A stretch of 64,000 nucleotides of DNA from Heptranchias perlo (lineage: Eukaryota), in contig NC_090359.1 of the NCBI RefSeq assembly GCF_035084215.1, forward strand, positions 14,322,001-14,386,000. Direction: 5' to 3'. Made by a program: the position numbers and the translations under genes. The number at the start of each line of letters is the position of its first letter. The stretch's first letter is position 1. The notes under the pieces were generated by a model. It did not search any database and had not been told where the DNA came from. It worked only from the letters and a program-made list of their open reading frames with translations. Shown here one piece after another: positions 15,780 to 52,082 of the stretch.

Positions 15780-16440
15780 ATACAATCCTTGAATCTCACA
15801 GCACAGGAGGCCATTCGACCCATCGTGCAGTGGCCAGCTCTTTGAAGGATGTAACCGATTACTCCCATTCCCGTGCTCTTTCCCCATAAACTTTGTAATT
15901 TTTACCTTTTCAAGTATTTATCCAATTTTCCTTTTAAAGTTACGATTGAATCGAGCTCCACCATCCTTTAAGGCAGTGCGTTCCAGATCATAACAATTCG
16001 CTGTGTAAAAAATCTCCTTATCTCCCTTCTAGTTCTTTTGCCAATCATCTTAAATCTGCGTCCGTTGGTTGCCGACCCTCCCGCCAGTGGGTGAAGTTTC
16101 TCCTTATTTACTCGATCAAAACCCCTCTTAATTTTGAACACGTCGATTACTTCTACCCTTAACCTTCATTGCTCGAAGCAGAACAATCCCAGGTTCTCGA
16201 GTCTCTCCACACAACTAAACCCCACCCCTGGTATAATTCTGGGAAATCTCCTCTCCATCCTCTCCAAGACCTTGACCTCCTCAATAAATTATAGTGCCCA
16301 GAATTGGACACAATACTTCAGATGAGGCCTGAACAATGATTTATAAACGTTTCACAGAACTTCCTTGCTTTTGTGCTCTATTTCTCGATTATTAAGCCAA
16401 GGAACCGGATGCTGTTTTAACGGTTTCACCAACTTGTGCT
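15780..16440 (-). mobile_element. Old CR1 3' portion
   Basis: Minus strand shows a decayed LKYCVQFWA motif and a CR1 3'UTR (GAATGGCCTCCTGTGCTGTGAGATTC). Confidence 0.7.
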
Positions 16441-17030
16441 GCCGCCCTCCGCTCTAATCCCATTGCCCGTCTCTCGGTCCTGACCCCGGGCTCGGGGACT
16501 CTCGGCCGGTCCAGGGCCCTTTAAGAGGGACGCGCCACACTGCGCATGTGCGCCGTTTATTTAAATCAAACCGTGCGATTCAAAGGAAAAGTGACGTCAG
16601 TTTCCGTCACAATAAAAACCGCTCGTTCTCAACCGAAAAAACGGAAAGTTTGTCTCGCGACACAACCGGAAGCGGTCGCTGATCCGGCGGGTGATGTGCG
16701 CATGTGCGAACATTCTCCCAGAGTGCAGCGCGGCCTGTCTCACAGATGGGGCCTTTTCTCTGCCGCTGTGCATTGTGGGAGATTCGGCCGCCATGACGGG
16801 CCCGGGTCACCGAGTTCATCCAATCACAGGTGAAGCTTCCCGGATTGGTGGAACCGACAGAGTGCAGGTGGTCTGTGGAGCGAGAGAATCTCTGAGAAGA
16901 GGGGCAGCCAATTGGGGAAATCACAGGAGGTGGTGACCGGTCATAAACCCAATCGGTGAATGACGGATTGAACCAAGGAAAGGAATGAAGAAACTCGACT
17001 GGGACCTGTGGGAACAGGCGGACTAATAAA
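16440..17030. promoter_or_regulatory. CpG-island-like Pol II promoter of an unidentified gene
   Basis: CpG-rich; TGCGCATGTGCG twice (NRF1-like, 16541 and 16697); TGACGTCA (CRE, 16592); CCGGAAG (ETS, 16666); several CCAAT/ATTGG; GCCGCCATG at 16787-16795. Confidence 0.6.
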
Positions 17031-17034
17031 TTTA

Positions 17035-17675
17035 ACCCGTGTCCAGTTCAGGTCACCACATTACAGGAAAGATGGGACTGCACCAGAGAGGGTCCAGAGG
17101 AGATTTACAAGGATGTTCCAGGAGTGGAGAATTTTAGCTGTGAGGAAGGATTGGATCGGCTGGAGTTGTTTTCATTGAAACAGAGGAGGCTGATTGGGGT
17201 TTTAATTGAGGTGTATAAAATTATTGGGGGCCACGCGGACTGCGTCACTTCAAGGCGGCAACTCACCCCCACCTTCTCAAAGGCAAATGGGATGGGCAAT
17301 AAATGCTGCCCTTGCCAGTAACACCCACATCCCATGAACAAATAAAAAAAGAATATGAAGGTCCTATATCCCTTAGCAGAGAGACCAATAACCAGGAGGC
17401 ATATATTTCAAATAATTGGAAGAATTCGAGGGGACCCGGGGATAATTTTTTTCACCCAGAGGGTGGTGTGGGTTTGAACCTGACTCGCTGAAAGGGTGGT
17501 CGAGGCAGAAACCAACATCGCTTTTTATAAGTACTTGGATGCGCACTTGAAGTCCCGTCACCTGCAAGGCTGCGGACCAAGGCCAAGAGTGCGATTAGGC
17601 TGGATAGCTTTTTCAGCTGGCACAGACAATGGGCCGAATAGCCTCCTTCTGTGCTGTAAATTTCTATGATTCTAT
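17035..17675 (+). mobile_element. CR1 3' portion, interrupted by a short 3' fragment of the 11340-12392 LINE family (~17232-17350)
   Basis: LELFSLKQRRLIGVLIEVYKII; tail TTTCTATGATTCTAT. Confidence 0.75.
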
Positions 17676-49192: not shown

Positions 49193-49650
49193 ACTGGAGT
49201 GCATCCTGGACCAAAATAATAAAATTATTATTTGACAGTTATTTTGGATTTATTGGTTTCCTGCACATGAACACACCCTGAACCCCCCCTGCTTATAAAC
49301 GGTGGGCCGAAAAACACACATAAAAAATAGGAGGAAGAAAAGAAAAAGAATTGAAGCCAACAAAAAAAGGAAGAAAAATCAAGTATCATTAATGCCAGTC
49401 ACTGAACAAACAGATTGAGTTAACCCCTTTCACTCAAGCAATGTAAATGTTCCAAAAAAAAAGAAAAACACACAAGGAAAAAGGGAAAAAAAAAAGCCTC
49501 ATTCTGACTGAACTTCCAGTCGACAAAAAAACCACCCAAACCCCCCCTTCTTGTGAAAGAGGGCCGAAAACACAAGGGAAAAAATTATTATCACATATTC
49601 TGGGTTTATTGTTTACTGCACATGAACACACTCGAAGAATAAAAAAACAA
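49193..49650 (+). mobile_element. Stack of short diverged Tx1 3'-end stubs with A-rich tails
   Basis: CTGGAGTGCATCCTGGACCAAAATAATAAAATT...CCCCCTGCTTATAAACGGTGGGCCGAAAA, with a second hairpin remnant at ~49540-49570. Confidence 0.75.
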
Positions 49651-49654
49651 CACA

Positions 49655-50543
49655 AGGCCTCCGCCGGGGGGGAAGGAGGGCACCCTCGCGGAAAAAAGGC
49701 GAGGAGGAAAATCAAACATCTGGAGGCTGGTCCCCGGGATGCTGAACAATCGAGTGAGCCCGAGGCTGCGATCGTGACCGCGGCCGATCTACATCTCGTG
49801 GTCGCGACGGAGGCCGGGCAGATCGTTGGTCAGGAGGGAGCGGAGGAGGGGGCCCCAGCAGACCCTCCCGCCGCGAGCCTCCGGAAAGAAAAAAAGGCGC
49901 CACTCCCTGGAAGCGGAGGGGAACCCTGCAAAGGGACGGCCCCCCGTGGAAGGGGAGTTGGCACCTGCTACGGATCCAGCGGCCCCACCCTCCATTTCAC
50001 ACCATCGGCGGGAGTCGTCCACCACTCGGGGGGAGGAGACCGAGTCCGTGCCTCCCGGGGGGGATGGGGAGACCCTGCCTATAGGGGGGGTCGCGGATCC
50101 GGGCACGGAGGAGAGTATACAGTTCACCGGGTCGGGCGTCCTGGGTGCCGGGGTGGACGAGGCCGATAAGGCTGAATTCGCCCGCTCGCGGCTCGACATC
50201 TCCCAGGACCTGCTCGACCTGGTGGACGGTTTTAATAAAAACGTCTCACCTGCCGGGTCGGTTGGTGGCGGTGTGGGCGGGGGGAGCCCCTTCTCCCGGT
50301 CTCTGGGCACGGTGCCGGGTGAGTTGGGGAGCTGGAGTTCACTTACTCCCCGGTTTCCCCGACCGGTGGGCACCGCAGGGGCTGGAGTGCATTCTGGACA
50401 AAAATAATAAAATCTTAATTTCACACTGGTTTTTGGTTTTCTTTGGGTGTTTTTGCACATAAACAAACCCTAAACCCCCCCTTCTTATGAAAGGGGGGCC
50501 TAAAAACACACAAAAAAGAAGAAAAAAAGAAAAAGAAAAAAAA
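49655..50543 (+). mobile_element. Tx1 derivative: mid-ORF1 fragment fused to the 3' terminal module
   Basis: 49655-50355 aligns to 41744-42455, then GACCGGTGGGCACCGCAGGGG, 3'UTR and A tail. Confidence 0.88.
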
Positions 50544-52082
50544 GAGTCGCTGTTTTGAAACGATTGGATGTCTTTCAGGGCCCCATTTGCTTTTTTAACA
50601 GCCTTCTCAACTTGTCCTGCCACCTTCAAAGATTTGTGTAACTACACCCCCAGGTCTCTCTATTCATCCACTCCATTTAAAATTGTTGTCTCTCCTCAAT
50701 CTTCCGACCAAAATGTGTCACTTCACAATTCTCTGCAGTAAATTTCTTCTGCCATGTTTCTGCCCATTTCACCAGTCTGTCTCTGTCCTCCTGAAGTCTG
50801 TTACTGTCCTCCACATTGTTTATTACATTTCTGAGTTTCGTGTCATCTGCAAACTTTGAAATTATACCCTGTACTCCCAAGTCCCGGTCATTAATATATA
50901 TCAAGAAGAGCAGTGGTCCCAATACCGAGCCCTGGGGGACACCACTGTATACTTGTCTCCAGTCTGAAAAACAACCGTTCACCACTACTCTCTGTTTTCT
51001 GCTCCTGAGCCAATTTTATATCCACGCTGCCATTGTCCGTTTAATCCCATGGGCTTCAATTTTGCCAACAAGTCTATTGTGTGATACTTTATCCTCCCTT
51101 AATCTCTCCCTGCATAGAAACTCCCCGACCCATATTCATGGCCACCCCCTCGACCTTGCCATCTCACGTGGCCTCTCTCCCCCCGATCGTGTCAATCATG
51201 GATAAGGCCATCTCTGATCACTTCCTTGTATCCCTCTCCACCCACATGGAATCATAGAATCATAGAAAGGTTACAGCACGGAAGGAGGCCATTCGGCCCA
51301 TCGGGTCCATGCCAGCTCTATGCAAGATCAATCCATGTAGTCCCACTCCCCCAATGCACATCACAGAATGAACTCAGGAATCCCACGCCACTTTCTATGA
51401 GCGGTGACAGGCTGCGGTTATGATGCAGACCGGGACCCAGGGCTGAGGCTGTGGTCATCAGTTACTCTGGGAATGGCACAGTCTGGTTCATGACTAGCCG
51501 GGGGTGAGAGTAACACCAGGGAGTCAGGCTGGTGTTTCGAAGGGTGTGGGTTCCAGCTCCCGTTCCAGGACTGGGACACATGATCCAGACTGACTGTGTC
51601 GTGCTGAGAGGGAGCTGCATCGTGAGAGGTGCTGTCCTTTGAATGAGGTGTTTAATGGCGGTCCGTTCTTTCTGCTCCGAAGTGTAAAAGATCCCGTGAC
51701 AATTTGTGAAGAGCCGTGTCTCGTTCCTTGTCTCATTGAGACTCTCAGTTAATTGGTCTGTTCTCTCCACAGATTCGGCCTGACTCGCTGAGTGTTTCCA
51801 GAATGTTCTGTGTGTGTTTCACTGAGACTCGGGTTTTACAGTAAATGATAAAAGGATTGTTGTCAAACACTTGGCCATGAGCTGCTGAGTGACCTGTCGG
51901 GACATTGTTGCTTGCTTCCCTTCAGCTTGCACGGTTGGGGTTTCGGTGCACTGTCCCTTTAAGAGCTGTGGTCTGCCTCATTTGTCAGTGTGATTGTGGG
52001 ACTGACACAGAAGCGAGGGAAGAAGCAGCAGCCACAGCCCGGACTCCAGGCAAATTGTGAGGCTGGGACGAAAAGGCTGTTA

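Follow-up and report, generated by a model that had tools for sequence, protein, structure and literature searches.

We analysed a 64-kb stretch of the Heptranchias perlo genome (positions 14,322,001–14,386,000 of NC_090359.1, here C38; the genome measures 3.25 Gb). This stretch is called the window, and positions given without a contig name are counted in it. The window carries five genes in the same orientation on the minus strand: two genes of the egg-coat family ZP3, termed ZP3-A and ZP3-B, and between them three ferritin genes, FerA, FerB and FerC (Table 1). The arrangement, including the 26,554-bp spacing of the ZP3 start codons at 22524 and 49078, is as an earlier, sequence-only reading of this DNA had described it. 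The ferritin block was probably captured, with copies of Tx1, a retrotransposon without long terminal repeats (non-LTR), at its boundaries, into a duplication mosaic of ZP3 and tRNA genes. The pairing of ZP3 with ferritin likely arose as a side effect of rearrangements where jumping genes have their hot spots, and not as a working egg-making module. The window sits in a ~9 Mb mosaic of segmental-duplication blocks in two orientations, in which tRNA genes are scattered and ZP3 occurs in at least 94 copies.

The probable source of the ferritin block lies on another chromosome, C43. Positions 24759–34212 match C43:4711886–4721310 at 97.1% identity, and positions 34854–40243 match C43:4741306–4735899, inverted, at 96.7%. 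The match is longer than 1 kb, exceeds 90% identity and includes introns and spacers, which qualifies the block as an interchromosomal segmental duplication. At either end the block stops 315–318 bp upstream of the ATG of a donor ferritin, precisely where a Tx1 begins, so that the suggestion of Tx1 at the breakpoints is borne out. The Tx1 at the right-hand junction has an open ORF1 of 680 residues, with a weak zinc-knuckle match below the Pfam cut-off, and an ORF2 broken by an internal deletion. In a tree of 82 ferritin genes, the 24 C38 copies need eight label changes and fall into a small number of clades. Each clade has a single gene of C43:4.71–4.74 Mb as its neighbour and is nested in the much larger C43 diversity; this pairing extends to a shared pseudogene. 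Because the C38 copies pair with particular C43 genes in this way, C43 is likely to be the donor. FerB is a mosaic drawn from C43:4722894 (exons 2–4), C43:4730913 (intron 1 and exon 1) and C43:4741193 (promoter), which would explain how the co-oriented form in the window came out of the head-to-head centre of the donor. Most of the 27 ferritin clusters on C38 are head-to-head pairs, and most retain the donor's centre, including the pseudogene. The C43 ferritin array spans at least 4.24 to 4.76 Mb in the DNA fetched. At its edge (C43:4243594–4257259) there are three divergent ferritin paralogs that branch deeply in the tree.

The junction of the block with ZP3 is marked by loss of the ZP3 core promoter. 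In all seven ferritin-linked ZP3 genes examined, a Tx1 tail at about −45 replaces the gene's own TATA box and E-box. Among the remaining 18 ZP3 gene models the TATA box is kept in 16, and the other two are broken at exon 1. ZP3-A is likely a damaged copy, judging from its lesions. A 20-bp filler occupies the site of its exon-2 deletion; the same 20-mer occurs in FerA intron 2 and in the C43 donor, and as a filler at the ZP3 exon-2 site it was found only in the window and in a 99.7% identical copy at C38:11.715 Mb. It is likely a templated repair insertion that postdates the joining of the ferritin block, and it ties FerA to ZP3-A. ZP3-A and ZP3-B are 93% identical and fall into separate starred clades of the ZP3 tree. 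The sequence-only reading had placed Tx1 ends at two junctions. The one near 46272 stands, as a Tx1 piece there truncates the last exon of ZP3-B, but the one at 50578 does not: the ~33 bp that separate the Tx1 tail from the adjoining duplication block are distal ZP3 promoter (−80 to −115), pushed away from the gene by Tx1 debris. The subfamily name ZP3 is presumed and follows that reading; exon 1 alone gives a ZP-N match slightly below the Pfam cut-off, and the putative signal peptide, ZP-C domain, furin-like site and transmembrane tail were judged by eye from the translation. Elsewhere, ZP3 exon 1 is split by a 6-bp simple repeat at C38:12312931 and C38:14510490.

Table 1. Features of the window, with positions, strand and remarks
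Feature	Position	Strand	Remarks
Duplication block (left arm)	742..5320	+	Degenerate tRNA-Phe 1122–1182, tRNA-Glu 3510–3581; many copies, both orientations
Second duplication block (arm13)	12960..14809	+	Adjoins tRNA-Leu/His-like genes
ZP3-A, nine exons	19719..22524	-	Lacks acceptor and opening 24 nt of exon 2; Tx1 tail replaces own TATA box and E-box
20-bp insert at ZP3-A exon-2 deletion	21250..21269		Identical to 28092–28111, FerA intron 2
Tx1 3' tail	22569..22877	-	Poly(A) abuts ZP3-A 5' UTR at −45; TATA-like motif at −89
5'-truncated Tx1, left block junction	22910..24715	+	Poly(A) stops at ferritin upstream hot spot
C43-derived ferritin block	24759..40243		~97% identity to ~30 kb C43 piece
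Ferritin A (FerA), intact, 176 aa	27351..29904	-	Seven ferroxidase-centre residues retained; sister C43:4717006
Old Tx1 3' fragment, −296 of FerA	30200..30375	+	Inherited from C43 donor
Ferritin B (FerB), intact, 175 aa	32743..34967	-	Mosaic of three C43 paralogs
Ferritin C (FerC), intact, 173 aa	37191..39922	-	Sister C43:4736217
Tx1 at ~−320 of FerC, divergent; right block junction	40243..45121	+	
Older Tx1 5' and 3' debris, truncates ZP3-B end	45542..46266	+	
ZP3-B	46272..49078	-	Retains its TATA box and E-box; GG at exon-5 acceptor; truncated in last exon, without poly(A) signal
Tx1 debris, antisense within ZP3-B promoter	49194..50545	+	
Right-arm duplication blocks	50577..57461	-	tRNA-Glu 52082–52155, tRNA-Phe 55142–55214

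This junction has been multiplied. Copies were counted with an exact 26-mer from ZP3 exon 1 (125 matches in the genome) and an exact 29-mer from ferritin exon 4 (165 matches), and positions come from the 100 matches listed for each. The listed ZP3 matches comprise 94 on C38 (9.13–17.93 Mb) and six at 20.39 Mb, where ZP3 forms a pure array; those of ferritin comprise 73 on C38 (9.64–17.72 Mb), 26 in the pure C43 array and one on C3. A co-oriented ZP3 lies 4.5–5.5 kb downstream of 19 of the 73 C38 ferritin matches, whereas 5000 trials of random placement gave such a ZP3 to 0.43 ferritins on average and to four at most; therefore one FerA–ZP3 junction, fixed at ~5.2 kb, was amplified. The linkage is far from the single occurrence that the sequence-only reading had named as fatal to its proposal, and its expectation of recurrence holds, with 27 ferritin clusters inside the ZP3 region among the matches listed. 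The repeating ~26.5 kb unit of one ZP3 and three ferritins that it envisaged was not recovered: the spacing is unique, and a search for tandem modules found no constant period and no further unit among the neighbours in 464 kb. Since ZP3-A and ZP3-B belong to different clades, they are not two ends of one repeat. Two further copies of the ZP3–three ferritins–ZP3 arrangement, far apart, have spacings of 32.7 and 32.9 kb, and the three-ferritin block occurs once more without the ZP3 frame; the three other block copies are 98.7–98.9% identical.

The Tx1 family is represented by an intact element on C43, whose ORF2 (1301 residues) contains endonuclease and reverse transcriptase domains and, across 99% of its length, matches the Xenopus TX1 149 kDa protein at 50% identity. 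The highest-identity partial matches of this ORF2 are one ray and one shark protein. By similarity, the APE-type endonuclease and the reverse transcriptase place the element in the Tx1 clade. An endonuclease 29-mer, which counts near-full-length copies, has 138 matches; of the 100 listed, 81 lie in the C38 region, four in the C43 array and 15 elsewhere. The resulting share of 85 in 100 for these copies, like the share in the fetched DNA, lies above the Kojima threshold for target preference, >20% of flanks with one sequence type (PMC4494074), but both shares are inflated by duplication, and a target preference by this measure is tentative.

In the fetched DNA, 130 Tx1 pieces with a 3' end were grouped into 42 junction classes; segments C3 and C38h, where no gene starts, were set aside, as were three ZP3 starts that are stubs or duplicates. 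Between −900 and +100 of an ATG there are 17 of 22 classes in C43 (15.6% expected), all four in the ZP3 array (4.3% expected) and, for the mosaic, 11 of 22 classes (4.6% expected); control repeats fall in the same interval in 9 of 54, 3 of 42 and 5 of 188 cases, respectively. The sites are many, range from −830 to +84 and occur in both orientations, with one recurrent site at about −296 to −320 of ferritin. A single target sequence of the kind known from Keno was not found among these insertions, and because the insertion points differ, Tx1 appears to have a regional promoter preference and not one target sequence. Away from the two arrays and the mosaic, 7 of 12 outlier sites have ZP3-derived flanks. 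As C13, C16, C32 and C37 share their flanks, near contig ends, these seven reduce to ~4 independent events of 9; the sites on C10, C18, C22, C30 and C41 are without ZP3-derived flanks. A "ferritin head" match on C30 was dropped as a host-derived flank, for it lies within the 5' end of Tx1 itself.

Several further observations concern Tx1. At ZP3-distant outlier loci (L081, L083–L086 and L090–L094, on C8, C13, C16, C32, C33, C37 and C39), the element's ends bear pieces of ZP3 5' UTR, promoter or intron 1. Stacks of five to seven near-full-length copies occur at C38:14510000–14560000 and C43:4454000–4488000; several of these copies have open ORF1 and ORF2, and ferritin-promoter pieces of ~200 bp lie in between. 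At C30:36.83 Mb (L089), a full-length Tx1 is enclosed by 205-bp direct repeats of 99% identity, far beyond the usual target-site duplication. At C38:14557970, C38:10010464 and C38:13098965, a full-length Tx1 in sense orientation lies ~25 nt past the start codon of a ZP3 gene whose TATA box and E-box are intact.

The following sequence of events would account for the capture. In the fetched DNA of both source arrays Tx1 recurs no more than ~900 bp upstream of the start codons of ferritin and ZP3 genes, possibly by targeting promoters that are open in the oocyte. A ~30 kb piece around an inversion centre in C43, now ~3% diverged, would have been copied to C38, a direction suggested by the nesting of the C38 copies. 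The block was joined to ZP3 at Tx1, with removal of the ZP3 core promoter; Tx1 may have caused this join, and the move likely proceeded by recombination or repair between Tx1 copies residing in ferritin and ZP3 promoters. Copies that are 98.5–99% identical are dispersed in both orientations over C38:9.6–17.7 Mb, and this spread was likely passive, along with the mosaic. Recombination among inverted paralogs could then have generated the co-oriented three-ferritin subset with its mosaic FerB. The likely functional outcome is a higher dosage of ferritin genes, while the linked ZP3, its promoter damaged, is carried along as a passenger.

A number of points weigh against this account. Four of the seven linked ZP3s have intact or near-intact splice sites and frames of 459–460 codons (three are without a called flaw, one has an altered last acceptor), and the Tx1 tail itself supplies a TATA-like motif at −89, so the Tx1-capped genes may still be transcribed. 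The pN/pS of linked ZP3s, 0.47–0.61, is below 1 and not clearly apart from that of array copies (0.55); mosaic copies that have their own TATA box show 0.33. One of the five linked copies in the tree (C38:13992004; the exon-2-deleted pair is set aside in this count) clusters with unlinked ZP3s, which implies gene conversion or a second join. The ferritin tree is midpoint-rooted and carries no clade test. As for the Tx1 statistics, the promoter interval was fixed after the distances had been seen, the loci were picked because they hold ZP3 or ferritin genes, and junction classes only approximate independent events. The DNA read amounts to ~1 Mb of the ~9 Mb C38 region and the arrays.

The captured ferritin genes are intact. 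Each has four exons (ATGs at 29904, 34967 and 39922). They belong to the H/M type: the ferroxidase residues E24, Y31, E58, E59, H62, E104 and Q138, a set that we take to be that of the human H chain, are complete in all three and in 58 of the 69 intact copies, and the best matches in the Protein Data Bank are H and M chains. Intact four-exon genes make up 50 of the 58 read on C43 and 19 of the 24 read on C38. No Rfam match to an iron-responsive element (IRE) at E ≤ 0.1 is present in the window, at variance with an IRE-regulated somatic ferritin. The TATA box lies 82–89 bp ahead of the ATG, and the promoters have four to six CCAAT boxes per 400 bp, where the background averages 1.0 with its 99th percentile at 5. 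A spliced retrocopy of ferritin exons 3–4 is found at C3:23046287–23046565, a hint of germline expression of the family; like the CCAAT boxes, it is an indirect hint at a possible oocyte specificity of the ferritins.

A more far-reaching explanation, which we put forward tentatively, gives Tx1 the leading part. The element would be a long interspersed nuclear element (LINE) that homes on the most active protein-coding promoters of the oocyte, those of ZP3 and of the IRE-less ferritins, and borrows them, while homology between its copies fuses and multiplies both families in a self-reinforcing loop. The region would then possibly be a 9 Mb hub of oocyte genes and tRNA genes, with ~100 ZP3 and 70 captured ferritin copies. 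For other elements, R2 and SINEU, transcription from flanking sequence is described in PMC4494074.

It is unlikely that the pairing is a selected oogenesis module, in which FerB, FerA and ZP3 were amplified as a unit since the oocyte needs both products in bulk and the linked ZP3 is driven by the Tx1 tail or by ferritin enhancers. The fixed junction in 19 of the 73 listed ferritin matches would fit such a module, as would the mostly intact C38 ferritins with their pN/pS of 0.23 and the linked ZP3s that have open frames and the Tx1-derived TATA-like motif. Contigs from runs X2, X3, X8 and X9 (two studies, presumed RNA, tissue not recorded) join ZP3 exons and ferritin exons at the predicted introns, both in the same runs; matched at 90% likeness, they speak for spliced families and not for individual copies. 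The contig joints at 39190–39821 are consistent with a 102-nt ferritin exon 1. Zebrafish follicles are rich in both families as well (PMC1488847): multiple zp3 isoforms are abundant there, and so are two or more ferritin heavy transcripts. However, 72 of 103 ZP3 copies (~70%; 94 exact matches and nine from a separate search) have no ferritin within 20 kb, which leaves 31 that do, and each family has a pure array of its own. The loss of the native promoter in 7/7 linked ZP3s argues against co-regulation, the 400 bp upstream of ZP3-A have no CCAAT box, and both ZP3-A and ZP3-B are damaged. The FerA class moreover has a pN/pS of 0.43, from few changes. The case for ZP3–ferritin as a functional cassette is weak, and ovary specificity of the ferritin and ZP3 copies is something we infer. 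None of the listed contigs crosses 24759 or 46272, which carries no weight either way.

The sequence-only reading had further seen the genes as a cassette lodged between two inverted tRNA arrays. Inverted matches do exist on either side: 742–3321 with 55593–53009 (94.7%), 3342–3962 with 52322–51713 (84%), 4194–5320 with 51714–50577 (89%) and 12960–14809 with 57461–55601 (93.2%). True head-to-head palindromes also occur in the region, e.g. at C38:10.30–10.35 Mb. The mirror structure is nevertheless absent, since the arm order is permuted (L1, L2, arm13 from outer to inner on the left; L2, L1, arm13 from inner to outer on the right). The arms, 84–95% alike, have closer copies elsewhere in both orientations (armL1 97.2% versus 94.7%, arm13 98.6% versus 93.2%), and ferritin-free ZP3 copies usually have the right-hand arm next to them on the upstream side. 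With self matches counted, the arms have 13, 16 (arm13) and 18 matches of at least 800 bp in 1.31 Mb fetched, in both orientations. They are ordinary members of the mosaic, and the closest copy of an arm is not its counterpart on the other side. The idea that the cassette moved or inverted in one piece, as a large palindrome or a composite element, is thus largely refuted and very improbable.

The proposed flanking tRNA arrays fared no better: ARAGORN reports four and Rfam seven tRNA matches in the 64 kb, about one per arm, and neither finds a tandem tRNA array in the arms within the window. The expectation of tRNA-rich surroundings was correct, as a relaxed threshold yields 65 tRNA calls over the surrounding 464 kb, a gap-free mosaic (no N) of the same blocks in both orientations. 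Low-threshold ARAGORN scans are mostly noise, and calls at ps90–95 were retained. Some 95 kb past the window, at C38:14479000–14499000, there is a tandem array whose repeat unit, ~2.1 kb long and related to window positions 7612–11111, comes with tRNA-Asp genes on both strands. Two other repeats in the window are a young full-length CR1-type LINE at 59945–63627, with an esterase-type ORF1, an open 980-codon ORF2 and 97–99% copies nearby, and a 54-bp minisatellite at 5734–6155 with 7.8 copies, which has up to ~20 in paralogous blocks.

That haplotypes or collapsed repeats were falsely joined into a ZP3–ferritin mosaic is scarcely credible: the region is highly repetitive and unplaced contigs C725, C1048 and C1246 hold similar copies, some possibly haplotigs, but the copies are 1–9% apart and share derived lesions in nested sets, the surrounding 464 kb are free of gaps, and an X2 contig bridges the FerC promoter–Tx1 junction at 40243 with one difference (X2 possibly comes from the assembled sample).

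If the capture by Tx1 is correct, the preference of one retrotransposon for oocyte promoters would explain how two unrelated maternal families in a cartilaginous fish came to be joined and to expand, each beyond 100 copies. Besides RNA genes, simple repeats and transposons, the known targets of Tx1 would then include protein-coding promoters. The locus would also offer a dated and traceable LINE-seeded interchromosomal duplication hub, with donor segment, breakpoints and a later inversion. The very large IRE-less ferritin family raises the question of iron loading in large yolky eggs. In titles and abstract beginnings, with few subscription journals covered, we found nothing on ZP3–ferritin linkage, on shark expansions of these families or on Tx1 at ferritin promoters.

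Primate core-duplicon regions are mosaic duplication hubs with repeat-mediated capture of gene blocks. Similar to these, the Heptranchias region consists of interspersed duplicates in two orientations (85–99%), contains a block from another chromosome, and shows retroelement junctions, templated insertions and chimeric or broken genes. Unlike them, it is based on genes for ZP3 and for tRNAs, extends over ~9 Mb and holds ~100 copies of ZP3, and the element at its junctions favours the promoters of the captured genes.

The element itself resembles Tx1-clade non-LTR elements (Xenopus Tx1L; Keno, Kibi and Koshi; crocodilian Tx1-Mar and Tx1-9_AMi) in ORF2 identity, endonuclease and reverse transcriptase domains, poly(A) tail and preference for multicopy targets. 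The targets given in PMC4494074, to which supplementary figures S3–S5 may add more, are snRNA and 5S genes, microsatellites, satellites and other transposons, and Tx1-9_AMi inserts into its targets at a set distance. In Heptranchias, by contrast, the hot spots are promoter regions of two protein-coding families, hit at many positions and in both orientations and not at one site, and long flanking direct repeats, as on C30, and stacks set the element apart from these relatives. The multiple isoforms recall the tandem zp3 and ovarian ferritin heavy paralogs of teleosts (PMC1488847 for zebrafish); unlike in teleosts, copy numbers are far larger, with 125 exact-motif matches for ZP3 and 165 for ferritin, and the two families are physically joined.

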